Shown here: piece after piece, positions 32,974 to 50,074 of the stretch
Numbering within the stretch: the stretch's first letter is position 1
How the letters are laid out: each line of letters starts with the position of its first letter
DNA from: Candidatus Thorarchaeota archaeon
GTDB lineage: Archaea; Asgardarchaeota; Thorarchaeia; Thorarchaeales; Thorarchaeaceae
Direction of reading: 5' to 3'
Assembly (NCBI GenBank): GCA_011364985.1
Contig: RDOC01000004.1
Coordinates: 96,001-160,000 of the forward strand
DNA length: 64,000 bases
Notes under the pieces: model-generated
What the model was told of the DNA's origin: nothing
Database searches by the model: none
Seen by the model: the letters and a program-made list of their open reading frames with translations, nothing else
Made by a program: the position numbers and the translations under genes

Positions 32974-33414
32974 ATGGCTCCTTCAGAGAAGATTGACAAG
33001 TATGACCGCAAAATCATCGAGCTTCTGTCGGAGGATGCACGCAGTTCGCTTAGAGACATAGGCAAGAAAGTGAAGCTGAGTGCGAGCTCCGTACGGAATC
33101 GAATGGCGCGCTTGGTGGAGATAGGTGTAATAAAATCATATACGCTCGATGTGGATTGGAGAAAAGTGGGGTATGACATACAGGTCTTGCTCTTAATCTC
33201 ATCATGGAGTAGCTCGGTAAAGGAGATTTACAATACGCTTATAGAACAGGATGAAATTCTGCAGGTATTCTGGACCTCAGGTCCTGCTAACCTTGTTTGC
33301 CTGCTTCGAGTGCGAGACATGAATGAGCTCTCACAATTCATCACCGAAAAGCTCGATCGGATTAGAGGTATACAAAAAGTGGAAACGATGTTCTTAATGC
33401 CAAGTCCACACTAG
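32974..33414 (+). CDS. Lrp/AsnC family regulator
   Basis: D..DRKII..L..DAR.S...IG..V.LS...V..R...L...GVI. Confidence 0.9.
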   Translation: MAPSEKIDKYDRKIIELLSEDARSSLRDIGKKVKLSASSVRNRMARLVEIGVIKSYTLDVDWRKVGYDIQVLLLISSWSSSVKEIYNTLIEQDEILQVFWTSGPANLVCLLRVRDMNELSQFITEKLDRIRGIQKVETMFLMPSPH

Positions 33415-33469
33415 ATTGTCCTCTAATTCTTGCAAAACGACTGCGATGTGAACTTGTCAAACCACACAC

Positions 33470-34489
33470 TCAACTCGTTCTCTTTCCCGTGTCCCGAGAC
33501 CAAACCATAAGAACTAACATTGACAAAAAGCCTCCAATCAAAGAACCGAGCAAGGCGAATCCCATAGCATTTTGGAGAAAGGATGGAGGGGCAGTGTTGT
33601 TTGTTAATGTAGACCCGTTATGCGTGGTGGTTGTAGAAGTTGTCTGGGTTGTAGTGGTTGTCCATGTGGATGGTCCAGGAGGATGATACTCATTCAATAC
33701 AATGACACAAAGAAACCCAGCAGTTATTGGATCGCAATAGAAATTGCTTAGAAAAGCAGAAGAATAGGGGGGAGCAATGCTCCACGCCGTCAAATATCCA
33801 GTATCGTCTTCAGTGATATTTCGTCCCTCATCTGGACCAAACCATATGCAGTAATACTCGACATTTCTGGCCTTTGGGACTGAAATTCGACAGTCCAGTC
33901 TTGTAGAGGCATTGATAATATTGTGTCGATTAAAACCGAATCCAATCTGGAATTGATCAGGATAGTCACAGGTAACTCGTATGTTGTCAACGAAGAATAC
34001 GTCTACGGCTGTTTCTCCCGGAAGCGTTAGGTTGATCAAAGCGTTGTGGTAGTCGGTACGATTACTTTCATAGGATGGAAAATTTGGCGGGAGATGGATG
34101 GGCTCTGTCAGATTGGTGAGATCAATCTGTTCAAAATGGACCATTTCCCCAACAATTCTGGATGAAAAATTGGATATCAATGAAGGCCAAAGCACTGAAT
34201 ACCAGTTTGGTGTGTAGAGTAATAATACATTCTGGCTATCGCCATCCATATTGGTTAGCTTCAAGGCGCCTTCCACTTCTACTGTAAGCAGAACGTTTCC
34301 TATCGTTTCAATGGTCATATTGATTTCAACATCGGTCATCTTAGCTCCGGAATTTAATGTGATTATGCTTGGATAGCACGGTATAAAGCTAGGCGGAGCC
34401 ACAACTTCAACGACCGGAGTATTGGCAAATATGAGAAAGACCAACAGAAGAATTCCTATCATCTTTTGTATTCTCATGATACTTGCCAA
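33470..34489 (-). CDS. secreted/cell-surface protein with Thr-rich linker and C-terminal membrane anchor
   Basis: Signal-like N-terminus, many N-x-S/T sequons, poly-Thr tract, C-terminal TM plus basic tail. Confidence 0.7.
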   Translation of the reverse strand: MASIMRIQKMIGILLLVFLIFANTPVVEVVAPPSFIPCYPSIITLNSGAKMTDVEINMTIETIGNVLLTVEVEGALKLTNMDGDSQNVLLLYTPNWYSVLWPSLISNFSSRIVGEMVHFEQIDLTNLTEPIHLPPNFPSYESNRTDYHNALINLTLPGETAVDVFFVDNIRVTCDYPDQFQIGFGFNRHNIINASTRLDCRISVPKARNVEYYCIWFGPDEGRNITEDDTGYLTAWSIAPPYSSAFLSNFYCDPITAGFLCVIVLNEYHPPGPSTWTTTTTQTTSTTTTHNGSTLTNNTAPPSFLQNAMGFALLGSLIGGFLSMLVLMVWSRDTGKRTS

Positions 34490-34549
34490 GATACTCTATG
34501 CATCATTTTCGTAATATTCTAATTCTTGAACACAGGAAAAGTAGGGAAA

Positions 34550-34667
34550 TGGTGCGGAGGGCGAGATTTGAACTCGCGATTCGGACGCCGAGTGGCAATC
34601 GCTCAGCGAACTCCTACGAGATAGGGATCTGAACCCTACGCCTTTGACCAGGCTTGGCAACCTCCGC
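34550..34667 (-). tRNA. tRNA-Leu(CAG) with 30-nt non-canonical intron (about 34580-34609) and encoded CCA
   Basis: Acceptor GCGGAGG/CCTCCGC, anticodon arm TAGGG-TTCAGAT-CCCTA, variable arm CTC-GTAG-GAG, T arm GCGAG-TTCAAAT-CTCGC; 88 nt after removing 30 nt. Confidence 0.92.
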
Positions 34668-34739
34668 TTTGCTAGAGCCCAGTGAGTCACAGTTGTGATA
34701 TAATGCTTTTCCTGCCGCCGGTGTGACTAATGTTATTAC

Positions 34740-35513
34740 CTATGTTGGATACCCTATATTACGCACCCTGTTTCGCGATTCGATCATATCCTGCTTGAGG
34801 TGTTCCCAATTGCCAATCTGGTTCAAGACATCTTCTCTAGCGAGAGCTTCATTCACAGAGCCATCGTAAAGAACACTGCCGTTTCTAAGGACGAGCACCG
34901 AATCTGCCCAGTTCTCTAGAAAGAATCTGTTGTGGGTGGTATACAATACACTCATGTCTTCATTTCGGGGATCTTCGATAATCTTAACCAGGCGGCGAAC
35001 CATTGGAAAATCAATACCAGTAAAGGGCTCATCGAGGAATAGAATCCGTGGCCGCATAGCAACAACTCCGGCAAGAGCTACACGCTTAGCCTGACCGTGA
35101 CTCATCTGATTGACTGGCCGGTCTCTAAAATCAGACATCTGGACAATTCCCAACTCCGTTCTGATCCTTTCCTCGACCTCGTCTTCTGAGAGGCCTTGGT
35201 TCCGTGGTCCAAAAGCAACGTCTTCCCATACAGTTAGAGCAAAGAGCTGGTCATCTAGATTCTGAAACAGGAATCCTATTTCCTGTCGGACCTGCCATAG
35301 ATTTTTACGGGTACGAGCTCTATCAAATACATATATCTCACCTGCCTCAGGTTCAAGCAAACCAAGAATCAGTTTGAAGAGCGTTGTCTTTCCAGAGCCA
35401 TTCAACCCGACCAAGGCTTTCTACTCGCCTTGATGTAGCTGGAAACTCACGTCCTCGATAGAGAAGTCATCATAACTGAAGTACAGTCTGGTAATATCAA
35501 GTGCGCACGTCAA
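34740..35513 (-). pseudogene. cbiO: ECF/CbiO-type ATPase interrupted by in-frame TAG
   Basis: TTG at 35513 reads ..DVSFQLHQGE*KALVGLNGSGKTT (TAG 35421-35423); the rest has Q-loop, MSHGQAKRVALAG, FLDEP. Confidence 0.75.
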
Positions 35514-35950
35514 GCAAATAGCACCTCCAATGAAAATGGGATGAGCACGAAGATGACCCACAATAGGCCAAGAAGCAACAAGACAAGAAGCGTGTCAGCT
35601 CGTCTAAAGCCTGAGTCAGGCAACACCATTTGTCCATCAAAACCACGAATCTTCATTGACTCGTAGATAGCAATGCTCTAATCAAATGCACGATCTATAT
35701 TGGAGCCTATAAGAAACCCCAGCGATTTAATATGCTCCGTTCTGGTACCCCTCTCAAATCCACGGAGGCTTTGTGCATCTTGCATTCGCTGTCGTTCCTC
35801 AATGAACAAGGGAATGTATCTGAGCATGATTAAGAGCGAGCCCAAGATGGATCATGGAATTCGAAGGGTTCTCAATGCTCCCATGAACCCAGACAGAGTC
35901 ATATGAGATAGGACACTAATGAAGAGAAGCGGTGACGATGCAAGAGTATT
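35510..35950 (-). pseudogene. cbiQ: CbiQ/EcfT transmembrane component, 5'-truncated with two in-frame stops
   Basis: ALRTLRIP*SILGSLLIMLRYIPLF..E..RM..AQ.LRG...RAFD*S..IYESMKIRGFDG (TGA 35852-54, TAG 35678-80). Confidence 0.8.
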
Positions 35951-36002
35951 AATATGTGCCACTTCTTGCGAAATCGTGTTACTATAGGATGTGATTCGTG
36001 TC

Positions 36003-36431
36003 ATGGTTTTGAAGAGATTCGGTGTCTCAGTACCAGAAGATATATTGAAGCGCTTTGACGAGCTTGTTGCGAAGAAGGGGTACATGGGTAGGTCTGAGGC
36101 ACTTCGAGATGCCATGCGCCTATTCCTATCACAACATGAGCTTGAAGAAAGTGATGTGGGGAATGTCGCAAGTCTTAGCATTGTTTACAAACACAACCCG
36201 CGCATTATGGCGGGTCTCATCAAAATGCAACACGATTCTATTGCAGATGTCATTTCCACATTACACGTCCATCTAACACCGTCGTATTGTCTTGAAGTCA
36301 CAACGCTCAAAGGATCGCGCGAAAGCATTCAGAGAATGGCTGACCAGATTGAAGGGCTATCTGGTGTTGAATATACTCGCCTCTTCACCTTTCCCTTGCC
36401 TGACGAGTCTACCGATCCCCATGAACATTGA
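36003..36431 (+). CDS. nikR: nickel-responsive regulator NikR
   Basis: RFGVSVP..L..FD......GY..RSEALRDA, QH, TLHVHL....CLEV. Confidence 0.9.
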   Translation: MVLKRFGVSVPEDILKRFDELVAKKGYMGRSEALRDAMRLFLSQHELEESDVGNVASLSIVYKHNPRIMAGLIKMQHDSIADVISTLHVHLTPSYCLEVTTLKGSRESIQRMADQIEGLSGVEYTRLFTFPLPDESTDPHEH

Positions 36432-36510
36432 TAAACAGCGGACTTCAAAAGGGTCTTGCGCTGAAAGTCCCGTTCTTATTGCTTCGGTGGGCTTCATGAA
36501 TTGAATTGCT

Positions 36511-36756
36511 ATGTCCATTGATGATGAAGGCATCGGTCCTCCAAGTCTCTATACAAAACGGACCATTCTTTGGATGCTGATGACCTTTGTCCTTACTCCT
36601 TTCACTGCAGGACTGCTTGCCCAAATGGAATATATTCCCTTCACAGTCGAGATGGCGATGCTGAATGGCCTTATTGTTGCCTTTGTCTACGTCGGATTCA
36701 GAGTATGGAAAGTTAAATCTGCTACTAATCAAATCAGAACAGCAACAAGTGTTTGA
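36511..36756 (+). CDS. small 2-TM membrane protein
   Basis: Two hydrophobic helices. Confidence 0.5.
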   Translation: MSIDDEGIGPPSLYTKRTILWMLMTFVLTPFTAGLLAQMEYIPFTVEMAMLNGLIVAFVYVGFRVWKVKSATNQIRTATSV

Positions 36757-36854
36757 ACACTTCACAGGAAAGGGGATTCTGGATGATGGAACAGAACTGG
36801 CTGTAAATCGGTTTCTTGGCTCTGCAGAGGATGTTTACAATAGGTGGTGAGAAA

Positions 36855-36876
36855 TGGGGCCCGAAGGGGGAATCGA
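36855..36876 (-). pseudogene. 3' fragment of the disrupted tRNA-His (T-loop to CCA)
   Basis: TCGATTCCCCCTTCGGGCCCCA; 19/22 identical to the 3' end of the intact tRNA-His; TTCGGGC pairs with GCCCGAG of the 5' fragment. Confidence 0.8.
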
Positions 36877-36963
36877 GAATCAGACTCCCATTAGCTTGAG
36901 TTAGATTCTCCTTGTAAACAAACTTATCATCATATTTACATGTACTAAAATGATGATAAGAAA

Positions 36964-37194
36964 ATGGAGGCGGAATTGAAGGACATCTTGGAAAACGGAA
37001 AGGATTGGGAAAAAGCAAAAACGACTACCCCAGGACTATGGATTTGCAAAATGCCCGGAAAAGGCGACAACCCTCCGAGCCTTGTCATCATCATTAATCC
37101 AATTGAGAATATTAACCCGCCTACATCAAAGAAATTAGATAGAAGTAGATTCTTTGAAGTAACAATGTCAGTATATCGTTTCAACGATTCTTAA
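36964..37194 (+). CDS. small hypothetical protein, probably truncated
   Basis: Protein-like N-terminal 57 aa (LENGKDWEK..T.PG..I.KMP); C-terminus looks degenerate. Confidence 0.4.
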   Translation: MEAELKDILENGKDWEKAKTTTPGLWICKMPGKGDNPPSLVIIINPIENINPPTSKKLDRSRFFEVTMSVYRFNDS

Positions 37195-37251
37195 TGAGTA
37201 GTTTCGGCAATTTCGATACCACAGAGAAAAGAACTGACAGGTGGATAAGAT

Positions 37252-37266
37252 GGATAAGCTAATAAG
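37252..37266 (+). promoter_or_regulatory. putative promoter box of the intact tRNA-His
   Basis: GGATAAGCTAATAAG, 14/15 identical to GGATAACCTAATAAG (45598-45584, minus strand) upstream of the disrupted copy. Confidence 0.5.
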
Positions 37267-37304
37267 CCGCTGGCGAAAATCAGCTTCTTCGTTTGAGAAG
37301 CAAT

Positions 37305-37379
37305 GGCCCGAGTGGTGTACTGGCAGCATAAGAGATTGTGGCTCTCTTGAAACGGGTTCGATTCCCGTCTCGGGCCCCA
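37305..37379 (+). tRNA. tRNA-His(GTG), intact, with encoded G-1 and CCA
   Basis: G-GCCCGAG/CTCGGGC-C-CCA, anticodon arm AGAGA-TTGTGGC-TCTCT, T arm ACGGG-TTCGATT-CCCGT. Confidence 0.95.
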
Positions 37380-37454
37380 TATTCCATCTCATCACGAGGC
37401 GTAGCAGTTTTTTGAGATAATGTCTTTTGTTATCCAGATGACATTAATAATCCA

Positions 37455-37540
37455 ACGATAGCAAAGGAGCCACAGCCGTTCATTTTCAATTGGACCTGAT
37501 TTTGCATCAGGCTGTCCCTCCAGGAACGGCACTGGATACT
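37455..37540 (-). ncRNA. 3' part of a putative TnpB omegaRNA (pseudoknot scaffold plus guide matching tRNA-His)
   Basis: Hairpin TCCAG-TGCCGTTC-CTGGA whose loop pairs with GAACGGC (37481-37475); hairpin CCTGAT-GCAAA-ATCAGG; then TGTGGCTCCTTTG. 5' extent unknown. Confidence 0.6.
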
Positions 37541-39672
37541 CTGTCTTGAACATGAATGATGTTTCGGGCTGCATTCACATCAGCATGGAAATGTTCGTCA
37601 CACAATGAACAATAGAAGTATTCTCCACCCCTTCTCTCGACGGTGGACTGCTCATCTGCAACACGAACACCACGCTCACCACATACATGGCAGGTCTGAG
37701 AAGTGAACCTTGGGTTCACTGTCCACACACTGTATGGTGAGTGTCCAAGTGACACTCGCATATATCTCACTGTGTCTATAATCTTCCCCCATAGATTCGA
37801 ACTTAGGTTGTACGACAGGTCCTTTGACCCACCATGAGCCTGAAAGCTCCTGAGATCCTCGAAGAAAATCTTCTTGACTCGATGCTCCTCACAGAACCAG
37901 ACGGTCTTTGATGCAATGATTCGGGCGATCTCACGGTCAAGACGACGGATCTTTCTCCATAGGGCTTTGATATGCCTGTCCTTCTTGAGGATGTGTTTTG
38001 GATATGACAGTCCTGATCGTTTGCGTCCCCAATTGTTCCTCTTCCTGTCTGTAACTGATTGCAGATCATAGGCCTGCTTTCTCAAGAACTCTCTCTTCTT
38101 CACAAGCTGGTCCACTCTCAACAGGAGTTCCCTGTATTCCTTCCCCTTCATCACCGAGAGCACCACGGGAACTCTAATTCCTCTGTCAACACCAGCCCTT
38201 GCTTCATACTCTCTTTCTCCAAGAACCTGCTGTATCAAGAAATCATCAGGAGCCAAGAAAGGAATCTGCAATGAAATTCTATTCCCCCTCAGAAGAAGTC
38301 GGGGAGGAGCGCTCCTCCTTGAACTCCTGAGTTCTGTGATCTTACTCTGAAGTTTGGTAGTTTCTTCTCCATCCTTACCCTTCTTCTGTTTCACTTTGTA
38401 GAGTCTGTGTGTCAGATGCTGTATCTCAATGGTGTTCATGAGCTGTTGATGCATATCTTCGAACATCGCCGCTCGAAACCTCAACCGCTGGGCACGATGA
38501 CAATCTCCATTGTCCTCTGCGTTCTGAGCCTTGGCTCCGTCTTTGATCGTGGCACTGGACATCCAATCCAGAAATCGAAAAGCCAAGGTCTTTCCCTTGT
38601 ACGGAGAACTCTCATGATGAGTGCCATTAATTCCTGGAGGGAGCTTGATGTGAAAGAGAATCTCATTCTTTCTCTCTGGGTCGACACTAAACCAGTACCC
38701 CTGTCCAGGCGAGTTCTCTGTACTTGCACTGAAATCCAGACTATGACTCCGAAGGCATGGAACAGAGAATAGGTATCCATTCTCTTTCCAAACCTCAAGT
38801 TTCCTTGCAGTAAGAAAGAGGATGCGTTCTTTCTCAGAAACAGAATCCTGAAGCAAGGATGCTACATACTTGCGTTGTCTTCCCCTCCATTGTATCTTGA
38901 CTCCTTGTTCCTCAAGAATGTGGTCATCCAGAGCTAGCCTGAGCTGTCTTAGGACTCCAAGGGAGTGATGAAAACCAGCCCCATCGTTCTTTGCTGAATC
39001 GCATGCATCTCTCACTCTGCGGATAAGATTGGAGGGAATATGCTTTCTTCTCAGAAGTTGAAGTGCATCAGCAGCAGACTCGCTTAGCACCTTGATCGCT
39101 GCATTGAAGAGCTGCCTTCGTGTCCAGTCTGCCAGAAGTGTACGTCCAGCGTGCTCAAGGGCATTGCGATAGAGTCGCTCAAAGCATAATGCCTGAATTT
39201 CCTCGTTCTGCTGGTAATTCAAATCCCTCATCTTCCTGAGAAGGGTATAAGCTCGCCCCCTGTATTCGGATAGTTGCTGACCAAGTGACTGCACACGGTC
39301 ATTATCCTTGTATATTCTTGCAAGCATGAGATTCACTACTTGGACATAGTTGTCAAAGAGAGAACCAAGAAGCTGCAAGTCAACCTCGTCCGCTTTCTTC
39401 CCAGAGCGCTTGGGTATCAGCGTAAATATCTCTTGATTTGGTTTTCTTGATGAAGAAAAGAAGGGGTCAGGTCTTCGATTTCTCCTCCTCTTTGCAATAA
39501 CTCTGTCAACAGAGTTCAGAACAAACGACTCGACAAGATAGGATTTCGATGGGGGTATTATAAAGTTGCCATCAATTTTCTCTTGCTTCTTCTGAGTTTG
39601 AGTGACAGAACCAGATTTCTGCTTCCAGTGATGGCGCTGGATTTCTTGCTTCATCATATGTTCCTGAGTCAT
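37507..39672 (-). CDS. tnpB: large TnpB/Cas12-like RNA-guided RuvC nuclease (721 aa)
   Basis: RuvC-I GVDRG, RuvC-II FFEDL, VNPRFTSQTCHVCG...CSLC Zn finger, RuvC-III HADVNAARNI; D-E-D triad intact. Confidence 0.9.
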   Translation of the reverse strand: MTQEHMMKQEIQRHHWKQKSGSVTQTQKKQEKIDGNFIIPPSKSYLVESFVLNSVDRVIAKRRRNRRPDPFFSSSRKPNQEIFTLIPKRSGKKADEVDLQLLGSLFDNYVQVVNLMLARIYKDNDRVQSLGQQLSEYRGRAYTLLRKMRDLNYQQNEEIQALCFERLYRNALEHAGRTLLADWTRRQLFNAAIKVLSESAADALQLLRRKHIPSNLIRRVRDACDSAKNDGAGFHHSLGVLRQLRLALDDHILEEQGVKIQWRGRQRKYVASLLQDSVSEKERILFLTARKLEVWKENGYLFSVPCLRSHSLDFSASTENSPGQGYWFSVDPERKNEILFHIKLPPGINGTHHESSPYKGKTLAFRFLDWMSSATIKDGAKAQNAEDNGDCHRAQRLRFRAAMFEDMHQQLMNTIEIQHLTHRLYKVKQKKGKDGEETTKLQSKITELRSSRRSAPPRLLLRGNRISLQIPFLAPDDFLIQQVLGEREYEARAGVDRGIRVPVVLSVMKGKEYRELLLRVDQLVKKREFLRKQAYDLQSVTDRKRNNWGRKRSGLSYPKHILKKDRHIKALWRKIRRLDREIARIIASKTVWFCEEHRVKKIFFEDLRSFQAHGGSKDLSYNLSSNLWGKIIDTVRYMRVSLGHSPYSVWTVNPRFTSQTCHVCGERGVRVADEQSTVERRGGEYFYCSLCDEHFHADVNAARNIIHVQDRVSSAVPGGTA

Positions 39673-39848
39673 TGTTCTTCATCAGCAATATTAACTCAGA
39701 GTATTATAAAGTTATCAAGATTACTAATTTATTGTCTCTTATTTTTTCTAAAAAAGGGATATAAAGGCTTATAATTGAATTATATGTTATTTTGTTTACT
39801 AACGAAATTTAATTACATGTATGTCGTAGTGTTTTCTAAGGTATCCCC
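39673..39848. promoter_or_regulatory. AT-rich divergent promoter region for tnpB and the 1774-aa gene
   Basis: Markedly AT-rich spacer with TTATAA/TTTATAA-like boxes between divergent ORFs. Confidence 0.5.
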
Positions 39849-42800
39849 ATGAGAGGTAGAAAGGGAAGAATAAACAGCCCAAGTGGCATCCTGAGTACTG
39901 CAATCTACATGGGTCTGGTCGCCCTGTGTCGAATCTCTAGAAACAGAGCAAGTAAGAAGACTAGAAAGTTCCACCGAAGTATCGAGAAGATGTGGGCATC
40001 AGCCCGAGAAGACTACAAGGTCCAAAAGGGCCTAAGACAGAATGACTTCTCGCCTATCAAAAATGCGGAACCAAACATGCGAGGACAATTTCTAAAATTT
40101 GTCTGGACAAGCACAAAACGATATGGAAACAAGGAGTTCAAGCGCGTCTATAGCTGGTTGGAAGGAACGGTTGGACCTCTCAATGCACTTCTGAACTATG
40201 CTGGAGCTTGCCTTCGAGACCTTGCTATGGTTCTATATCCTTTTCCACAGCCTCAGAGGTTCCAAATTCGTGAATGGCCGAACGGGACTAGAAGGATTCT
40301 CACTGAATCAGAAGCTAGTGAGATTACAAAGGATGGTACAGTAAAAGTCCACTGGCGGAGTGGGTATGAGAGGAATGGCAAGAATCCTCGAGTGTTACTC
40401 TCGCATCCAACCTTGCCTAGTCTGGATTTTGTAGACATGATACGGACACATTGCGTCGAGCTCTGTCGACAATGTTTTATCTATCACGTCCCTAGGACTG
40501 AGGCACATCGATACATACGCCTCCTTATTCATCGACTCAAGCCCTTCCTTGACTGGATCTACACAAATGGACAAGAGGGCCGTTCTGGGTTCAATCCTCA
40601 TGCTGACCATGAACTTAGGAAGATGGTCCTTGAGATAAGGTCACTCTATAGAAAAAGTGCTAAGACTAGTAGACGTATCTCGGGGCAGCATAACGAGAAA
40701 CCCATTGACCTCTCTCTTGAGAAAATCCGCCAGAAGGGCATCAAACAATTGGAAGAATCCACTGATGCAAAGGAAAGAAAGCTGTTACAGAAATTCCTAA
40801 ACTATATCGATACTGCATCAGGAGTCGTAGCACGACGTGATATCGAGAAACTAATAGGTCAGATATTGGCTCTTAGTTCACGAGAGGGTACTACTTGGCA
40901 CAGGGTCCTGCTCTCAGACCTCCACCATCCGAAGTCCCTTCGTCAGGTCATTTTTTCTGGGGATCAGCTGCTTACTTCATTCTCATCAATCCTAATAGTT
41001 GCGGAACTCCCTGTTGCAGGACATTCCGGACGAGTGGACCTGACCATTTTCATCAGAAGAGAGATTGCAGGAGAGGTCTTGTGGACTCCGGTGATGATCC
41101 TTGAGATTAAGACAAAGGCAACCTTTGATTTCAACCTCTACGGATTTGAACTCAAGCGAAAAAGAAAGCATGCTGTCACCCCTGCTTTCTACGCATGGAA
41201 ACGCACTATGACTGGGAATGAGTGGCAGAGCATTGTCAATGCAAGTCCCGACCCAGATGCCCTTAATCAACTTCGAGCCTATGAACAGGAGCTTATTGCA
41301 GAGTATAGACAGTTAGCCGCTCATGACCCAGCTCCGCCCTCCTCGCTTTGGAAAGGAGTCATTGTCTTGGATGCTGAAGCGAGTCCGGAGGACATATTTC
41401 CAGCCGTCCAGTTTCTTCTTGAAGATCTGAAGACTGGGCTCCTACAGCAGCTGATTGATCGAGATTCCTTCATTGCTGTTACACCAAAATCCCTAGCTTT
41501 AGAAGGGGACGATCCCAGGGTTTCTCTACTAGTTTCTCCAGCCAGGGGACCTACTGGATTACTCGGCGAGATGGAGCCTCCCACAAGTCTACCCATTGAC
41601 GATCCCTTTGCTGACCGAGAGAGCGACGACCGACTTCTAACACTCTATGTTTCCATTCCTTCTCCAACCTCCTCGGGAGTGACTGCAGCAAGACTCTCTC
41701 GAAACTGGCATCTCCTTCATCATATTCAGGAGTGTATTGAAACAATCTCCTCCATAGAAGATGTGGTGTGGCTAGACCTTATGGGGGATTACAAGAGCGA
41801 TGAGCTTGTCAAGAAACGATTCGGCTTGCATTCCTTGAGACAGGAGAAGATGATATCCAAGAAGTCCTTTCGGGAACTCACCTCAATCCTTCAATCCATC
41901 AGGTTTCTCGACCTGAGTCCATTCATGAACGGGATTCTTACCGAAGGCGCACAGGCATTTAGCAGCCTACTAAACCATATTGCAGCTACAATCCCAGCTG
42001 AGAATGGAGAACAGATCATCATCCTTGATGGATGGACAGACCTGCAAGATATGATTCCAAGACATCAACAGCACCTACTTCGTATCCTTGAGCGAAAACT
42101 GCTTCATGCGCTCCCTCAATCAAATGTTAACATCATCTGGATTGATGACGGTGTGCCCCATACTAAGATGAACCCAGACTACCAGCGTCAGTGCATCAGT
42201 CCTCTTAGGTATGACTCCCTCCGCAAGACTCATGTTGATGAGTTCATCTACAATATGCCAATACCCTCTCCTAGGTTCTGGTGGACAAATCCACAACATG
42301 ATGATATTCGAATCATTGTGCAAGACACCCCGACCAGAGAAAACCCCTGGAAGACGGCAATCTACGTTCCACAACTTTCGGGACTTGCAGAGAAGTTTAG
42401 AGGTCTTGCCAAGCGGGACAGAGTCATTGCTCCTAAGGAAATAGCACAGGATTTGGAAGGGAAGAAACCTATGTATGGACGAGATGTGACCCTGTGTCGC
42501 ATTCATCCATCTTCAGGTATTCTCTCAGAGGATGAACTCTCTGACCTTCTAGAAGATGCGCTCACTCTTGTGCCCAGTACCCTGAGAGAGAGGATGCCCC
42601 GACTAGAAGAAGAGTGTGAAGAAATCCAGATTTCTGAAGATGCTATCTGGCAATCTGTTATCCAGACGACTAGCTCTGCAAGCGGTTCTACGATGGAAGA
42701 AAGGATGAGAATTGATGTAACAAGACCACCCCCACGACCAGGGGGAACTGACCGATACATCGATGTTCTCATCAATGCTAAAAGAGAGCGGATTACAAGA

Positions 42801-45173
42801 TCTTGGTCCTATGACCAGACCCCCAAGCAATTTCCTGATGATGCAGATGAGTCTTATCTGTGTACATTCCCTCCAGAGTTGACGATCTCTGATGCAGTAG
42901 AGATCGACTCCATTGAAACCCGTGAACGAGAGCTTGGACGGCTCAAATCAGCAACCAGATACCTGAAGCAACAGACCTTCCTCTCACAGAAACTAAGGAA
43001 AATGTGCAGGAGGATTGAGAGGCATTGCAATCAGCAATTTGCTCTCATTAAAGACAACCCCTCACTGAAGACCAGTAACTTCTTCTTTAAAGCACTCAAA
43101 CAGGTCGAAACAATTATCCTAGAGGACACGCTAGGAGCAACTATCTGGGAAACACTCCGTTCATCTCGACAAGAACTACTTGATGTTCTGAACTCAGACA
43201 ACAGACAATTCTTAGAGGAGGTCATGAAGGAAACACCTGATGCTCTCCTGCTCTATGGCAATAATCTTGTCCTAGCAATTGTTTCTGTTCTCAAGGACAG
43301 CAACTTGTCTTTAGCAAAGCCTCTCTGGGAGTCTGTTGCTAGGTGGACATTATATCAGATAGGAATGAACAGTGACAATGATATCACAAAGACAGTCTAT
43401 AGCTTTCGAGCAATTCTCTCCAACCTGAGAGCGCGCATCAATACTCTTTCGCATCTCAATCTCCCTGAGATGATTCTGGAACAAGAGCAGGTTGGTGCGA
43501 TCATTTGGATGGAGTCTGAGGCCAGGTATGATGCACTTCTTCTAATATCTCATGATAATACTGGCTTTCTAATTGGCATTATTGAGGGACTAAACAATAG
43601 ATGGATTCCAGCAAAATGGCACTCCTGTAAGACAACTCCCCAGCAGTTAAAACACCATGTGCAGAACGCTCTCACATCCACAGATAGGACACCTGTTATC
43701 ACGACCACGGTTAGAGATTTGAGTGTCCTCCTGATACCTGCGTTGACCGAGGATGATGAACTCGTCTGGAGCTGCTTCTCTCTGAAGCATGGTAGACCCA
43801 GCGGACGACGAAACAGTATTCCATGGATAAAGCTAGAACCTGCTGAATCTCTGGCAGCGCCCAGCCACGTACCTGAGATCCCAGACGAAATTGACGAAAC
43901 TCTCCGGAAGATAATTCGGGTCAAGCACAGCATCACTCCTGTAAAGCTCCTCGTTGGTATAGATGAGGAGCTTGAGGTCTACGAAGTTCAGTTAACGGGC
44001 GAAGGCATTGAAGAACGACGTAAGTTCAGACGAACCAGAGAAGCGGTTCGATTTCTCAGAACTCCAATCAGAGAGGGAGTGGGGTATCGGTGGCAGGGAC
44101 AGACTCTCACTTGGGACCATCGCAAAGATATCGATTATGGCGATTCACTCTCTTTTCTCAGACCTCTTATTCATCGGAGCAAGTTCTACCCCGATATCTA
44201 TCATTATCCAAAGACATGCAAGGACCTCCTTACCGCAAGCAAAGGACATGAGATAATCATGGTCATCAGTCAAGAGGGACCGACATACCGGGTCAAGTTT
44301 CAGGATCTCCCAGACCAATCTGCTCTGAGAGAACTGGAGATAGCGGAACTGGACATCCATGCACTGGGCCTACTTGCAGAGTGCAAGGAACTCTTTGACC
44401 TCGGAAGCAGGACTTGGCACCCATTAGTGCTAGATGTCAACGCTATCATGGACCTCTGGTTCCCCAAGCTTCATGAATACCCCCGGCTAATTGAGGCGAT
44501 TCAGGCCGCTGATGTTAACGAGTTCAACTGGTCAAGAGAAACATGGTTCATAGAGATTAGGCTTTGGAGAAATGAACTGAGATGGTGCATCATGTCGAAG
44601 ACAACAGGACTGCCTTGGATGAACAGGGAATTCACATATATCCTTACTCTTGGAAGAGAGCCTGATAAGGAGTTGGAGGCTTTCAAGGAGGTGGTCACGG
44701 CCATTGTTCAGCCAGAGCATCTCTGCAATCTGGATGACGAGCTTGAAACGTACAAGGTGACACTCAAGGAGAGGTATAGTGAATACCTTCGGACTGTCAG
44801 TGTGGAAGACGCGGATGAGAGAAAAGCTGAAGATGAGCTGGAGAAAGCTGCTGCTATAGGCGCTCCATGGGAGAGAATAGCGTTCAGGTATAGCGGAATG
44901 AAACTCAGGAGAATAAAAAGAAACACCGTGGTTGTTGTTTCCTTGGTGTCCGGCGAAGAAGAAGCAGAGGTGTACGTGGTGAGGGATGTCCAAAGGTATG
45001 TGAATGAATCTCGGTCAGCAGGTGCAATCCACTCAGAACCTGTTGATGATGAGGTGAAGGAGAGTCTTGCAGACTATGAGTTTGAGAAGGGCGAGCTTGA
45101 AAGAATCAAGGCGGCTGTCAGGAAAGTGTTGGAGGAGGAAGGAGTCAGGTTTTCTAATGAACAGGCCTTTTAG
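39849..45173 (+). CDS. 1774-aa protein with PD-(D/E)xK nuclease domain and possible degenerate P-loop domain
   Basis: AELPV...GRVDL...ILEIKTK...QLRAY (E..D..ExK plus QxxxY); later SPTSSGVT and IIILDG. Confidence 0.7.
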   Translation: MRGRKGRINSPSGILSTAIYMGLVALCRISRNRASKKTRKFHRSIEKMWASAREDYKVQKGLRQNDFSPIKNAEPNMRGQFLKFVWTSTKRYGNKEFKRVYSWLEGTVGPLNALLNYAGACLRDLAMVLYPFPQPQRFQIREWPNGTRRILTESEASEITKDGTVKVHWRSGYERNGKNPRVLLSHPTLPSLDFVDMIRTHCVELCRQCFIYHVPRTEAHRYIRLLIHRLKPFLDWIYTNGQEGRSGFNPHADHELRKMVLEIRSLYRKSAKTSRRISGQHNEKPIDLSLEKIRQKGIKQLEESTDAKERKLLQKFLNYIDTASGVVARRDIEKLIGQILALSSREGTTWHRVLLSDLHHPKSLRQVIFSGDQLLTSFSSILIVAELPVAGHSGRVDLTIFIRREIAGEVLWTPVMILEIKTKATFDFNLYGFELKRKRKHAVTPAFYAWKRTMTGNEWQSIVNASPDPDALNQLRAYEQELIAEYRQLAAHDPAPPSSLWKGVIVLDAEASPEDIFPAVQFLLEDLKTGLLQQLIDRDSFIAVTPKSLALEGDDPRVSLLVSPARGPTGLLGEMEPPTSLPIDDPFADRESDDRLLTLYVSIPSPTSSGVTAARLSRNWHLLHHIQECIETISSIEDVVWLDLMGDYKSDELVKKRFGLHSLRQEKMISKKSFRELTSILQSIRFLDLSPFMNGILTEGAQAFSSLLNHIAATIPAENGEQIIILDGWTDLQDMIPRHQQHLLRILERKLLHALPQSNVNIIWIDDGVPHTKMNPDYQRQCISPLRYDSLRKTHVDEFIYNMPIPSPRFWWTNPQHDDIRIIVQDTPTRENPWKTAIYVPQLSGLAEKFRGLAKRDRVIAPKEIAQDLEGKKPMYGRDVTLCRIHPSSGILSEDELSDLLEDALTLVPSTLRERMPRLEEECEEIQISEDAIWQSVIQTTSSASGSTMEERMRIDVTRPPPRPGGTDRYIDVLINAKRERITRSWSYDQTPKQFPDDADESYLCTFPPELTISDAVEIDSIETRERELGRLKSATRYLKQQTFLSQKLRKMCRRIERHCNQQFALIKDNPSLKTSNFFFKALKQVETIILEDTLGATIWETLRSSRQELLDVLNSDNRQFLEEVMKETPDALLLYGNNLVLAIVSVLKDSNLSLAKPLWESVARWTLYQIGMNSDNDITKTVYSFRAILSNLRARINTLSHLNLPEMILEQEQVGAIIWMESEARYDALLLISHDNTGFLIGIIEGLNNRWIPAKWHSCKTTPQQLKHHVQNALTSTDRTPVITTTVRDLSVLLIPALTEDDELVWSCFSLKHGRPSGRRNSIPWIKLEPAESLAAPSHVPEIPDEIDETLRKIIRVKHSITPVKLLVGIDEELEVYEVQLTGEGIEERRKFRRTREAVRFLRTPIREGVGYRWQGQTLTWDHRKDIDYGDSLSFLRPLIHRSKFYPDIYHYPKTCKDLLTASKGHEIIMVISQEGPTYRVKFQDLPDQSALRELEIAELDIHALGLLAECKELFDLGSRTWHPLVLDVNAIMDLWFPKLHEYPRLIEAIQAADVNEFNWSRETWFIEIRLWRNELRWCIMSKTTGLPWMNREFTYILTLGREPDKELEAFKEVVTAIVQPEHLCNLDDELETYKVTLKERYSEYLRTVSVEDADERKAEDELEKAAAIGAPWERIAFRYSGMKLRRIKRNTVVVVSLVSGEEEAEVYVVRDVQRYVNESRSAGAIHSEPVDDEVKESLADYEFEKGELERIKAAVRKVLEEEGVRFSNEQAF

Positions 45174-45174
45174 A

Positions 45175-45320
45175 CTAATGAGCACACAACTCGTAGACCC
45201 TTCATGAGAAGAAGGCGATGAGAGATATCATGTCAGAAACCAGCTCCTTCTGTGGACTCTGCTGTTCTGGTATATAGAGAATCTCAACACCCACTCCATA
45301 GTCCTTGAGGATCCCTAGAA
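45175..45320 (-). pseudogene. tnpA: C-terminal remnant of IS607-family TnpA serine recombinase
   Basis: ILKDYGVGVEILYIPEQQSPQKELVSDMISLIAFFS*RVYELCAH*, resembling the IS607 GV.I.V...S.EEELVEDL.SI..SFSGRLYG.R pattern; TGA at 45202-04. Confidence 0.75.
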
Positions 45321-45500
45321 GAATGCTGGTGACCTTGACATCCTACTCGGTGTTTAGGACTGACCTAGTCTTTAAAGCAGTCATCTTACCCTTTGTCAAG
45401 AAAAAAAGCAGTGTTTTTTTCTCAAGGATTTTCAGTGGGAAGCTAATATTGAACATACGGAAACACGAGCGAAGAACGAGGTGAGATACATGCAGAGATT

Positions 45501-45539
45501 AGCCACAATCCTTTATGTTACCATTACACCACTCGGGCC
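45501..45539 (-). pseudogene. 5' half of the disrupted tRNA-His(GTG)
   Basis: GGCCCGAGTGGTGTAATGGTAACATAAAGGATTGTGGCT; 34/39 identical to the intact copy; ends just past the anticodon loop. Confidence 0.88.
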
Positions 45540-45687
45540 ATTGTTTACTAAGAAGCCAGCGATGACCAGCTCGTTTGTTTTTTCTTATTAGGTTATCCGT
45601 TTAGCAACTCCACAAGCATCCCAAACAAAAGCATGGCATGATTCAAAAACATCTTCCATCAATCGGAAGCGAGGAGATTGTAATAGG

Positions 45688-46248
45688 GTGAGTGAAGTGG
45701 AGAAACTAACAAATGCATTGGATAAGCATGCAACATTACGGAATTTGGCACTAGCGATAGTTGTCTGCATTGTTGTTATTGCGATCATGGGTTATGCTAC
45801 CGAGACCCTCGTTTACACCGTCTTTGGCGACACGACAATGCCCGATACTAGGCTATGGTACAGCTATGGAGAGATACTCAGCGCTTTCATCATCTTGGGT
45901 CCAGAGGGACTCCAGATTTGGTCGCAAGTCCATCTGCTTGACCTACTACTTCCGCTAGCCTATTCCTTTTCATTGGTGTTTGGAATATTGATGGAACTCA
46001 GAGTTGTTCTTCCTGATAGACGAAATCTGCGGCAGCTTGGCCTTCTTCCGCTCTTGGCTGCAATTGCAGACTACCTTGAAAATACACTAATCGCATCTCA
46101 AATAGCAGCATATCCTAATCTCTCCGAGCCTGTCATCGAAGTGGCAAGCGTTGTGACCACCACAAAATGGGTTCTGTTAGGGACTTCCTTTGCCATTGTC
46201 TTCTTCCTTCTAATGCTTCTGATATACAACAGAGCGGCAAAGAAATAG
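45688..46248 (+). CDS. 4-TM membrane protein
   Basis: PD.R..YS, D...P..Y, D..EN motifs and TM helices. Confidence 0.75.
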   Translation: MSEVEKLTNALDKHATLRNLALAIVVCIVVIAIMGYATETLVYTVFGDTTMPDTRLWYSYGEILSAFIILGPEGLQIWSQVHLLDLLLPLAYSFSLVFGILMELRVVLPDRRNLRQLGLLPLLAAIADYLENTLIASQIAAYPNLSEPVIEVASVVTTTKWVLLGTSFAIVFFLLMLLIYNRAAKK

Positions 46249-46585
46249 AGTGTTAGGTGAAGATCCGCTCCTCCGCAGGTCTTCAAGATATGAGAGATCT
46301 ATCTGTCGAATCGGGTTAGAGGAGGAGCTCTTACATCCTCCCCAACTAGAGGATAATAAGAGGAGGAGGAGAGGCAAGCTACATGATCTGAGGAGGTCTT
46401 CCTATTGCGAATTATCTGAATCGTCATTTTTCTTCATCTGTAAACAATCGTACCTTGACCGAATATTACTTGCTGGCCAATTGCAGCTGAAGAAACAGGC
46501 ATATTTCGAGAGAATTTCTTTCAGGAATCGCAAGCAGGATTGCGGAGGCGATACGACCAGAAACTCAGAAGAATGATGCCATTTG

Positions 46586-47503
46586 CTATATCCCTGCCTT
46601 TTCCAACATCTGTCTGAGCTTAATCTCGCCCAGATACGGGTACTTCAAGCTTGAGTACGAAACCAAGGTTGCGGTTGACCGTACATGGTCCAGTCCTCTG
46701 ATTTTCTTTGCAATTGCCTCTGCCTCATACAAAGTATCAACCACAAACTCTGCAAACAGAATGGAATCTGTTGCCGATACCCAAGGACTCCAAAACTCAA
46801 CTGGATACTCATTATGAAGCCATTCGATCATATCATTCATGGAGACCTTCTTCTCGTCTAAGTCAATTCTGATATTGATGTTTACAAGACCGCCTGCCGC
46901 AAGATCAGGTCTAGCTGCAAACCAAGCGGCCTCCTCTTCAGCAATTTCATCAAGGGCACGGCGTACGGTTTTTGAGGACAACCCAGACTCCCTTGCAATA
47001 TCGGCAATGAGTCTTCGAGGGGCATCAATTAGAGCTTTGAGAACCTTGAGATGCACTTTCTTGAACCTAAACTTCAAGCCTCTGTCATTAGTCAAAAGTG
47101 GATGCATCTCAACCTTCAGCGTTTCATTCAAACCTCTTAGGAAGGCTCCAATCTCATGAAGCATCTCTGTACCAATGTATTGTCCCCAGACCAAGTAAGC
47201 ACCACCGCCCACAGTTGCAAGGAGACTGATATGACCAATCATCGAATTTCTACCCATGATATCAACAAACTCATCAATGTTCTCAGTACCATCGGTGACA
47301 ACAATTGCCTGAAAGTCGTTAGCTCCTATTACCTCCCTATCTAGAGCAACGAAGAATTTGGCCACAACACCTGTATCAATCAGACCTGCAACTCTATTCT
47401 TAACTGCATTTGGACTTAGACCTGTTTCTCTTGCAAGGCTTTCATAACTCACTCGGCAATTCGTGCAGAGATTGGAGAGGATCTTCTTGTCAATTCTGTC
47501 CAA
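46586..47503 (-). CDS. tandem Lrp/AsnC-type HTH regulator
   Basis: Two HTH units (D.IDKKIL..L..NCR.SY..LA; LKALIDAPR..IADIA..SGLS.KTVRR.L). Confidence 0.85.
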   Translation of the reverse strand: MDRIDKKILSNLCTNCRVSYESLARETGLSPNAVKNRVAGLIDTGVVAKFFVALDREVIGANDFQAIVVTDGTENIDEFVDIMGRNSMIGHISLLATVGGGAYLVWGQYIGTEMLHEIGAFLRGLNETLKVEMHPLLTNDRGLKFRFKKVHLKVLKALIDAPRRLIADIARESGLSSKTVRRALDEIAEEEAAWFAARPDLAAGGLVNINIRIDLDEKKVSMNDMIEWLHNEYPVEFWSPWVSATDSILFAEFVVDTLYEAEAIAKKIRGLDHVRSTATLVSYSSLKYPYLGEIKLRQMLEKAGI

Positions 47504-47565
47504 TGGTAGACCTCCGTGGAAATATCCGACAAGGGAATCCTAATATTGCTAGATTGATATCTGCA

Positions 47566-47922
47566 TTACGAAGGGCCACTCAATACGCCCTTCAAGTTGT
47601 CTATTTCCTCTTCCAAATCATCAACCTTTTCAGAGAGTGCGATAACGGAATTTAGTAGCATGGAAATGATATAACCATGATTCACTGAGTATCCCTGTTC
47701 TCGCTCTATCAATTCAGCCTCTTCTAGCCTCCGAGCAGCATTAGTCACAGACTGCTTGGACAACTTCCTCTCCTTGATTGGTCGGTTTACCGTTTCTCGG
47801 ACTTTGGTGGGAGAAATCACCGGACCTTTCAAGGGAGCCAGCAGACTATGAAGCAGCAGCAGTCCTGCACTCATACGTGGATTCCTGATCTTCTCAAATG
47901 CCAATTCCAGTTGATCCTTCAA
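47566..47922 (-). CDS. winged-helix protein with C-terminal coiled coil
   Basis: LSKQSVTNAARRLEEAELIER; LSEKVDDLEEEIDNLK. Confidence 0.65.
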   Translation of the reverse strand: MKDQLELAFEKIRNPRMSAGLLLLHSLLAPLKGPVISPTKVRETVNRPIKERKLSKQSVTNAARRLEEAELIEREQGYSVNHGYIISMLLNSVIALSEKVDDLEEEIDNLKGVLSGPS

Positions 47923-48155
47923 TGTTTTGCGCCCCCGATGATTTCATGATTACGTGGAGCAGTAAACGCATAGTCCATGAAAAAGCTTCTTGTTATTAGA
48001 AACCGACCAGAAATGATACACTGCGGAATTCTGAGTAGAGCAACGTTTACTGACTCAGAGGTAACCTCGAAAGATGAATTGCTATTTCAAATCGTATCTG
48101 ATAGGTCATGTCAAAACAATGAAAAGACAGTTACTCTGAAATGCTTTGACTTCAA

Positions 48156-48842
48156 TTGCAGACAGACATCAACCGAATAGTGTTCATCCCGGTAATCCAC
48201 ACGGACAAAGAGAGTGTGGATAGGGTGATTCAGACAGTGAATTCAGTGAAACCCGACGTGGTAGCCGTTGAACTAGATAGAGAACGGTACTATCAGTTGA
48301 CAGAGGCAAAAGCCGGCAAGAATGCGACACCGCAAAAAATGGCAGAAGACGCTGTACAAGGCCTTATGCAAAACCTAGCGATACTGGAACAAAGACTGGG
48401 GGAGACAACTGGGTCAAGTGTGGGAGAGGAAATGATCGCCGCGATTGAGGAAGGAAGAAGAATTGGGGCCAAGATCGCTCTTGTGGACAGACCACTTCAT
48501 CTCACAGTGCAGGCCCTGATGTCTGTGCCTTTAGATGAGATCTACAGGTTAACGGGTCTTGTCCCAGAAGCAAATGAAGAGATCGTTCAAGGGGATTCCA
48601 AGGACATTTTTGGGATATTAAAGGAAGAAGGAGCAATTGCAGACTTGATGAAGGACTTTGAAAACGAGTTTCCTTTGACCGCAGAAGCACTTATTCATCA
48701 GCGAGACCGCTATGTGGCAAATGCTCTTGTGACGATCTTAGATGACGTTGAGGGGAGAATTGTCGTCGTATTAGGAGCTGGGCATATCAACGGCGTTCAG
48801 AAAGTACTCAAGGAGCTTTTAGAAAAACAAAGCGCATCCTAG
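48156..48842 (+). CDS. TraB/PrgY family protein
   Basis: H...S, PD.VAVELD..R, G.EM..A, LVDR, RD..., VV.LGAGH..G. Confidence 0.88.
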   Translation: MQTDINRIVFIPVIHTDKESVDRVIQTVNSVKPDVVAVELDRERYYQLTEAKAGKNATPQKMAEDAVQGLMQNLAILEQRLGETTGSSVGEEMIAAIEEGRRIGAKIALVDRPLHLTVQALMSVPLDEIYRLTGLVPEANEEIVQGDSKDIFGILKEEGAIADLMKDFENEFPLTAEALIHQRDRYVANALVTILDDVEGRIVVVLGAGHINGVQKVLKELLEKQSAS

Positions 48843-49489
48843 AGTCCGAGTCCCTCGATCAGTCTGTCGATGCCAGTGTCACTCTTGGCGCTTACACTAT
48901 ACACGGGAATTCTTGCATCAACCTCTCGTACATCATTGACCAAGGAATCAACATCAACTCCGATTGCCTCTGCAAGATCTATTTTGTTTATGACAACCAT
49001 ATCCGACCTCTTTATTGTTAGAGGATGCTTTCTAACCATGTAAGGACCCTCTGTGACGCTTACTACGACAACTTTCTTGTCAACACCAAGAGAATAACCT
49101 GCAGGACAGATTAGATTGCCAACATTTTCAATAAATACGAGATCGTAGAGCGATAGGTCGACATCATTTAGTGCAACACGAACCATTCGGGCATCTAAAT
49201 GGCAGGCAGTTCGTGTATTAATCTGAACTGTATCCACTCCGTGAGATGATACACGGTCAGCATCAATAGTAGTAGCAAGGTCACCCGCAATCATAAGAAT
49301 TCGATACATGCCCTTAAGGCGGTCACAAAGAGCTTCGATGATTTGGGTCTTTCCTGTACCAACAGAGCCCATGATGTCGATTGCTGTGATTCCATGATCC
49401 TTGAATGTAGCTGCATTCATGGCTGCAGCTTCTTCATTCGCACCAAAGAGGTCCTTCCTAATATCGATTTCAACGGTTCGTTCTGGCAT
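48839..49489 (-). CDS. hypB: hydrogenase nickel incorporation GTPase HypB
   Basis: GSVGTGKT, GDLAT..DA, CHLDA, IENVGNLICPA, SVTEG, NKIDL. Confidence 0.93.
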   Translation of the reverse strand: MPERTVEIDIRKDLFGANEEAAAMNAATFKDHGITAIDIMGSVGTGKTQIIEALCDRLKGMYRILMIAGDLATTIDADRVSSHGVDTVQINTRTACHLDARMVRVALNDVDLSLYDLVFIENVGNLICPAGYSLGVDKKVVVVSVTEGPYMVRKHPLTIKRSDMVVINKIDLAEAIGVDVDSLVNDVREVDARIPVYSVSAKSDTGIDRLIEGLGL

Positions 49490-49495
49490 TGTTAA

Positions 49496-50074
49496 TCAGC
49501 TCTCAAGTTCCTCAAGTTGAAGGGAAACCATTTCAGGATATAGGTAGTTGCCAAGGATTGGTCGGACGATGGTCCTTTCAATGGCTAGTGCGAGAGCTGC
49601 CCAACCGAATGCCTGTACCATATCCACAACTGCCCCTAGGAGAATCAGTTCCGTAGGCAAGAGGAATATCGACAGGATGACTAGGTCAGCCAAGAAACCG
49701 CCAATAATTCCACCACCAAGGATTGCCATTGCAGTGTATTTCATGCTATCACGCTCTCTGGTCATATGAACGGCATAGCCAGTCCCGACACCCAATGCCA
49801 TATTTCCGATGAAGGGCACAAGTGGATAGGTAGTTCCGGAAATGATACCACCAAGGCCTACAATAAACCCAACGAAAATCCCTCCGGGAACGCCACCCAC
49901 AACTCCACCCAAAAGGGAGAAAGTGAACGCAGGGGTCAGCTCAGCAACATCAGGAACAAGCATGAACCAAAGAGTGGACCTAACAACAATGCCTACTGCT
50001 GCAATCATAGCAAGAGTGGTTATTGTCACAGTATTCAATCGAATTGGCACCGCCACCATCGCAAAAGGCTCCAC
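49496..50074 (-). CDS. ECF transporter S-component-like membrane protein
   Basis: Multiple TM helices, G..GG..G..VG pattern. Confidence 0.6.
   Translation of the reverse strand: MEPFAMVAVPIRLNTVTITTLAMIAAVGIVVRSTLWFMLVPDVAELTPAFTFSLLGGVVGGVPGGIFVGFIVGLGGIISGTTYPLVPFIGNMALGVGTGYAVHMTRERDSMKYTAMAILGGGIIGGFLADLVILSIFLLPTELILLGAVVDMVQAFGWAALALAIERTIVRPILGNYLYPEMVSLQLEELES

Follow-up and report, generated by a model that had tools for sequence, protein, structure and literature searches.

The window analysed here, a stretch of 64,000 nucleotides from a Candidatus Thorarchaeota archaeon, contains an open reading frame (ORF) of 5.3 kb next to a tnpB gene, which raises the question of what the encoded giant protein is and what part it plays beside TnpB. 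The initial annotation described an intact ORF lying opposite to tnpB and beside a tnpA remnant, with a 176-bp AT-rich spacer shared with tnpB, and all of these features were confirmed (Table 1). The giant frame is free of stops across its 1774 codons and is flanked by a divergently transcribed intact tnpB and the remnant of an IS607 tnpA gene. The GC content of the giant/tnpB spacer is 25%, compared with ~46% for the whole window. TnpB matches the Pfam family Cas12f1-like_TNB (E 7e-13), and its three RuvC residues are all present. The tnpA remnant shares 70% identity with residues 147-199 of the intact TnpA found at the second giant copy of this genome, which contains Resolvase and MerR HTH domains. 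Besides these three genes the insertion carries only a tRNA gene and a 75-aa ORF; weak relatives of the latter were detected on contig C3 and in locus L041.

Table 1. Positions of the predicted features within the window
Feature	Position	Strand	Remarks
3′ end of the interrupted ancestral tRNA-His (right junction)	36855..36876	-	
75-aa ORF inside the insertion	36964..37194	+	
Intact tRNA-His inside the insertion	37306..37379	+	inverted relative to the broken one
Presumed TnpB guide	37461..37474	-	role inferred from position
Conserved right end of long-type elements	37476..37506	-	finishes in AATGAACGG; GG core, IS607-like
Long-type TnpB	37507..39672	-	721 aa; canonical RuvC D496/E605/D698
AT-rich divergent spacer, giant/tnpB	39673..39848	.	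176 bp, 25% GC
aCas1-like multidomain protein (giant ORF)	39849..45173	+	1774 aa
Predicted Cas1 catalytic (helical) domain, aa 5-265	39861..40643	+	fold match and conservation
Putative Cas1 triad	E74 (40068), H186 (40404), D196 (40434)	+	
PD-(D/E)xK nuclease domain, aa 355-535	40911..41453	+	E386, D397, E419-x-K421, Q474-x3-Y478
RecA/Rad51/KaiC-like fold, aa ~590-900	41616..42548	+	Foldseek, VIA
C-terminal 850 aa, several small domains	42624..45170	+	pLDDT 87.8
C-terminal remnant of IS607 TnpA serine recombinase	45166..45324	-	adjoins the stop of the giant ORF
5′ half of the interrupted ancestral tRNA-His (left junction)	45501..45539	-	

Sequence searches with the whole protein and with its single domains against Pfam and PDB gave no significant match. 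Domain parsing with AlphaFold, recommended in the initial annotation, was informative: the protein was modelled with AlphaFold2 as two halves, both models were confident (pLDDT 88.5 and 87.8), and Cas1 and RecA-like folds were recognized. The giant represents a strongly divergent form of Cas1-type integrase to which a nuclease and a RecA-like domain are joined, and its parts follow one another in the order Cas1 catalytic domain, PD-(D/E)xK nuclease, RecA-like fold and a tail of ~850 aa. Judged from sequence comparison, purifying selection acts on all four regions (dN/dS 0.05-0.33, non-saturated pairs only).

Residues 5-265 are predicted to form the catalytic domain of Cas1; the earlier domain account had included the nuclease correctly but overlooked this part. 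In an exhaustive structure search of 48,161 chains, Cas1 chains ranked top for residues 5-254 (Z 12.9, 12.8 and 12.2). The VIA structure search aligned the N-terminus with Cas1 8flj_A over 177 residues (Z 12.9, rmsd 3.7), and casposase 6opm_A matched the N-terminal domain with Z 11.0. The putative triad is conserved in ungapped homologue rows (E74 as E/D in 137/137, H186 in 139/139 and D196 in 139/139), and E74, N112, H186, D193, D196 and R199 show almost no variation or none among giant homologues. When aligned as a profile to 30 canonical Cas1 proteins, the triad falls in register with the Cas1 motifs; this alignment is weak (score 28 vs ≤21.7 for shuffles, after manual removal of a 45-residue insertion), and the domain scores below the Pfam Cas1 cut-off. 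The Cas1 assignment is based on fold and residue conservation, since sequence searches gave nothing significant. Ordinary Cas1 and casposase dimerise through an N-terminal beta domain (PMC6977970). This domain is missing from the model of the giant, which is helical from residue 11; alignment to solved Cas1 chains starts at their residue ~85-115, and the structure match comprises the helical catalytic domain only. A second Cas1-like helical domain at aa ~1010-1190 (Z 6.5), considered as part of an internal pseudo-dimer, was unsupported by profile comparison.

The PD-(D/E)xK motifs had been placed near aa 385-480, and these positions proved to be right. Among 146 homologues, E386 is present in 143, and D397, E/D419, K421, Q474 and Y478 are each found in 146/146. 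Language-model neighbours of aa 355-535 in Atlas all belonged to one nuclease clan, PD-(D/E)xK, at scores <0.9 that make them a lead only. There was no nuclease among the structure matches listed for the giant, these being occupied by its other domains. The region that follows resembles RAD51D/XRCC2 (E ~1e-4 in Foldseek; Z 11-12 in VIA). As reported earlier, it has a Walker-A-like loop devoid of Lys and a Walker-B-like motif: within the loop (residues 604-612) Val611 replaces the Lys, which is retained in 25 and missing from 121 of the 146 homologues, while Asp727 of the Walker-B-like motif is present in 111. The giant thus has a RecA fold, but the Walker A GK[ST] of active RecA-family ATPases is absent from it.

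The remainder of the protein had been given as about 1000 unassigned aa. It still has no clear match, but it measures ~850 aa, because the RecA-like fold spans residues ~590-900. No clear match to the C-terminal half was obtained in Foldseek, VIA or Atlas, which is no proof of a new fold, since this half was folded whole. The last 200-300 aa vary across the family, and TPR matches or labels were noted in some long homologues. Stand-alone proteins of 504 aa (L041:16091-17605 and L085:7772-9286) match residues 1214-1552 of the giant only.

The initial annotation regarded the protein as a partner of TnpB, possibly an integration/homing factor, and named homologues found mostly without TnpB as the sign of incidental cargo. 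Such homologues are the exception. Among the giant homologues with an N-terminus and enough upstream DNA, a divergent TnpB is encoded at 53 of 54 loci (these loci are related, so they do not amount to 54 independent events), which argues against incidental cargo. The spacer measures 70-362 bp in 51 of these 53, and a divergent TnpB accompanies the giant at 4/4 distant loci, three of them labelled Heimdallarchaeota. Together with the Cas1-type integrase domain, these counts speak for the proposed partnership. In a sample collected by starting from TnpB, which leaves out loci already found via the giant, 32 of the 59 loci have a giant and 27 do not. The link is one-sided: the giant needs TnpB, and the reverse does not hold.

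Two types of TnpB could be distinguished, a long one of ~720 aa with a canonical RuvC and a short one of ~560 aa in which the RuvC-II glutamate is shifted. Of the TnpBs paired with giants, 15 belong to the long canonical type and 34 to the short rearranged one. In a quickly built maximum-likelihood tree comprising 77 giants, the TnpB type changes 11 times, at least 10 of these changes being forced by well-supported branches, and both types occur among the nearest relatives of the giant described here. Such repeated changes suggest that the genetic partnership is modular and does not depend on a tightly co-evolved interface. Some loci depart from the usual layout. At L125:1031-10279, a long-type tnpB is preceded by an IS607 tnpA, an aCas1 homologue of the same orientation, a RadA/Rad51-like gene and an ORF of 218 aa; the giant is co-directional with tnpA and tnpB, with the RadA-like gene between. 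A RadA-like ORF similar to that of L125 was found at L103, ~2 kb upstream of a solo tnpB. L087 is a deletion derivative in which the N-terminus of a giant is fused in frame to the C-terminus of TnpB, while in the deletion derivatives L108 and L120 the 5′ half of tnpA is joined straight to tnpB.

A search with the giant protein revealed 107 relatives; the named ones are almost all from Thorarchaeota, with one labelled Lokiarchaeota and one Promethearchaeia. A profile search of 1.84 billion representatives recovered 205 proteins, the distant members of which come from Heimdallarchaeota. Within the host's family, 23 of 36 genomes contain the giant, frequently more than once, and no match to it was found in 24 more distant genomes (single query). 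Four copies are carried by the source genome (on contigs C17, C21 and C16, and a broken one on C15). Copies sit in unrelated neighbourhoods, with many per genome in relatives, and the near-identical pairs L066/L111 and L104/L107 have different flanks and a sharp right end. Apart from TnpA, no recurring neighbour gene, and no recurring antitoxin or defence gene, was found beside the giants at homologue loci. In the same phylum there are also open frames of 1325-1367 aa with weak Cas1 matches (G104:C5, G104:C4 and G119:C9), possibly representing a different large aCas1 group.

Long-type elements terminate at a sharp right end with a conserved motif that finishes in GG, and the short repeats preceding this motif recur inverted upstream of tnpA. 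The right end of this locus and the ends of its TnpA-bearing relatives fit the IS607 GG core and repeated end motifs; here the left end has been lost and 14 bp of the target are missing. It had been suggested that the giant replaces TnpA. This agrees with the 55 of 64 loci at which no other transposase stands beside the giant, but only in part with the long-type loci, since 9/25 of them carry an IS607 TnpA, intact or as a remnant (vs 0/39 for the short type). The ends of long-type elements are of IS607 style, and some of these elements, among them the C21 copy of the source genome, retain an intact TnpA, which could suffice to move them. On the giant's side no aCas1 end sequence was identified, because a scan of ~40 loci detected neither terminal inverted repeats nor a target-site duplication bounding giant and tnpB, and in close pairs the similarity stops at the giant's stop codon.

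Downstream of tnpB, short-type loci contain the motif T...GTTCACTCA, as exact GTTCACT in 18/33 and as variants in most others, including the C15 and C16 copies of the source genome; it was found in 0/15 long-type loci, this locus included. At the short-type loci L133, L135, L139, L152 and others, a motif just upstream of tnpB contains the reverse complement of GTTCACTC, together with a direct copy of the sequence following the GTTCACTC motif downstream. As the upstream motif copies downstream sequences, these repeats flank tnpB alone, and they may delimit a unit consisting of tnpB only or represent a self-targeting guide.

The insertion lies between the two parts of a tRNA-His gene, and the tRNA-His within it is the only intact one found in the assembly. 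One assembled contig, from a run possibly of the source sample, joins position 36876 to 45501 with 14 other bases between, and the joined sequence was called as a complete tRNA-His. Sequencing depth is 28-30 on both flank contigs vs 21 inside the insertion. This points to an empty tRNA-His allele in a co-occurring population, represented by a contig from a single data set with 85% likeness and 30 bases on its short side, which could be a related organism's. If this is right, a unit of 8,624 bp replaced 14 bp of tRNA-His, without duplication, at a guide-matched site. The presumed guide, the 14 nt after the right end, lies ~570 bp from the 3′ end of the broken tRNA and agrees with the anticodon arm of the old tRNA-His at 13/14 positions in the empty allele and at 11/14 in the intact spare. 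Neither terminal inverted repeats nor a 14-15 bp duplication was found at 36877/45500. The two junction sides overlap by 7 bp; a target duplication was weighed as the explanation and discarded, as such an overlap is not general among long-type loci. An empty-site search in genus relatives yielded a single partial locus that has no tRNA. No RNA contig fell on this stretch, a result that has no bearing on expression. Folding of the presumed guide-RNA region does not surpass that of shuffled sequences (z 0.25), no CRISPR or other tandem array is present within positions 33000-50000, and a canonical cas1 was not found in the source genome (74% complete).

The tRNA context proposed earlier is real but confined to a minority of loci. 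A tRNA gene lies within 700 bp of tnpB at 24/77 giant loci and, similarly, at 6/25 solo TnpB loci, compared with 1.2% of random windows; this proximity is strongly enriched yet not specific to the giant. Layouts with a tRNA fragment plus an inverted copy were likewise seen at L068 (His), L076 (Lys), and L042 and L089 (both Asp).

aCas1 was reportedly described by Makarova et al. 2020 (CRISPR J 3:156). The main text of Altae-Tran et al. 2023 (PMC10691335) describes TnpBs that have variants of an Asgard Cas1, the groups Cas1H-Asgard-1 and -2, in place of their transposase, proposes aCas1 as the transposase and offers a computational catalogue of the aCas1-TnpB pairing. Judged by the published description, the giant very probably belongs to this family. 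Like the loci described there, it is Asgard-restricted (in the searches made here), and it combines a diverged Cas1 beside TnpB with a proposed transposase role. Likeness to that description extends to the two TnpB groups (720 aa, canonical; 560 aa, with the shifted RuvC-II Glu). The description also places a CRISPR-repeat-like motif, T...GTTCACTCA, downstream of aCas1-associated tnpB, the carrier group not being stated; its presence behind the short type in relatives may be a further point of agreement. This locus, unlike short-type aCas1-TnpB, is of the long type and without the GTTCACTCA motif. The main text of PMC10691335 does not contain the domain architecture, IS607 TnpA inside the elements, the repeated swapping of TnpB types, tRNA targeting or the spare tRNA. 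No experimental work on the pairing was found in the literature searched.

The element also resembles IS607 (PMC6188088): the remnant of a MerR-HTH/resolvase TnpA precedes tnpB on its strand, and the ends carry short repeated motifs with GG at the right end. It differs from IS607 by the 5.3-kb reverse-oriented gene between tnpA and tnpB and the 721-aa size of TnpB; here, moreover, decay has affected both tnpA and the left end, and the junctions do not correspond to a clean insertion at a GG core. Casposases, which are Cas1 integrases, use tRNA genes as targets (PMC5137440), and a stand-alone Cas1-type integrase on a mobile element with a frequent tRNA neighbourhood is common to casposons (PMC5137440, PMC6977970) and the element described here. 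Unlike casposase, the giant has no N-terminal beta domain, includes nuclease and RecA-like domains in the same chain and is paired with TnpB. The element is not a casposon, because no family B polymerase, terminal inverted repeats or 14-15 bp duplication were found. Tn7-like CRISPR-associated transposons (CASTs) unite an integrase, a PD-(D/E)xK nuclease, an NTPase fold and an RNA-guided effector. The giant and TnpB offer the same set by analogy only: the integrase is Cas1 instead of DDE, the NTPase is degenerate RecA-like instead of AAA+, the catalytic residues of TnpB are intact, and there is no CRISPR array. An Aloposon-type giant gene was considered as well, and the idea was dropped after the link to Cas1 and TnpB emerged.

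We hypothesize that the giant serves the element as integrase and as the enzyme that processes its ends, and that TnpB retains or spreads the element by cutting empty sites, a reading to which we assign an even chance. Sites free of the element, at this locus the anticodon arm of tRNA-His, would be cut by TnpB with its guide RNA; the nuclease domain would trim or release DNA ends, which the Cas1 domain would join to target DNA, and the RecA-like domain, mostly unfit for canonical ATP binding, may serve as a scaffold or DNA-binding platform. The element at this locus would be derived from an IS607 with a decayed recombinase, and the 8.6-kb unit would bring a variant tRNA-His, keeping the host alive. 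We infer these catalytic steps; architecture, conservation and linkage are observed. The integrase reading is supported by the Cas1 fold, the conserved triad, the invariant nuclease motif, purifying selection and the linkage to TnpB, as well as by the scattered multi-copy occurrence and the general lack of another transposase beside the giant. That about half of the loci in the TnpB-first sample have no giant fits non-autonomous derivatives. The integrase reading also draws on the near-identical pairs with different flanks and a sharp right end, on the casposases as tRNA-targeting Cas1 integrases, and on PMC10691335, where the same role is proposed. Its main weakness is that no DNA end is found on the giant's side while long-type elements own a recombinase; the missing beta domain and the weak sequence similarity to Cas1 count against it too. 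The same absence of the giant from 27/59 loci (those found via the giant excluded) would be expected of a selfish or neutral passenger of IS607/TnpB elements with no part in their cycle, as would the tnpA-tnpB derivatives L108 and L120, and IS607 ends plus TnpA suffice in principle for movement (PMC6188088). A passenger is nevertheless distinctly unlikely: orientation and spacing have persisted across Thorarchaeota and Heimdallarchaeota and through at least 10 changes of TnpB type, both active sites are conserved, and the protein is under purifying selection.

A module made up of Cas1 and a PD-(D/E)xK nuclease is typical of CRISPR adaptation, and the giant might instead be such a module in one chain (Cas1 plus a Cas4-like nuclease) that writes guides by adding new DNA to the TnpB RNA locus at its 3′ end, thereby reprogramming TnpB, with mobility supplied by TnpA or homing. 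This would account for a giant that needs TnpB when TnpB does not need it, and for a guide that is not simply host flank at this locus; the CRISPR-repeat-like motif behind aCas1-associated TnpBs, as described in PMC10691335, points the same way. We nevertheless find guide writing rather unlikely, as no tandem array lies near the locus, ordinary host flank follows the right end at most long-type loci, and the "hypervariable" stretch of the short type is only ~10 nt long and similar between loci. Genuinely RNA-guided integration is also unlikely: TnpB would cut the site specified by its guide and the single-chain Cas1-nuclease-RecA protein would join the cassette into the break. The insertion would leave behind a short deletion and no duplication, and the system, unrelated to Tn7-type CASTs, would act as a cut-and-rescue drive when directed at an essential tRNA and equipped with a guide-resistant spare. 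The toxin or defence effector also offered in the initial annotation, with a nuclease, a dead NTPase and a sensor tail serving addiction or anti-virus defence, would suit the invariant nuclease motif and the variable C-terminus with its TPR matches or labels in some long homologues. It is disfavoured, and we hold it to be very unlikely, given an intact Cas1 triad for which such a role does not call, an NTPase fold that is RecA-like and not STAND, the strict link to TnpB and the absence of a recurring antitoxin or defence neighbour at the homologue loci.

Type V CRISPR immunity has two halves, whose ancestors are Cas1 integrases and TnpB nucleases. The pairing will not surprise specialists, because it has already been published; a natural two-gene Cas1 and TnpB unit without an array is a direct test bed for the first meeting of adaptation and interference, and allows one to ask whether an RNA-guided cut can steer a Cas1. 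For such work this locus offers catalytic residues, a right end, a predicted guide and a candidate empty target.

Sequences bordering some of the other elements have features of their own. A conserved non-coding stretch of 100-150 nt that looks structured is located just past the giant's stop codon at L049, L054 and L056, and a match to the 3′ end of 16S rRNA (anti-Shine-Dalgarno) follows the right end at L054 and L056. At L046, the 3′ tail of the TnpB RNA region occurs a second time, as a 57-bp copy in direct orientation ~200 bp past the stop codon of the giant.
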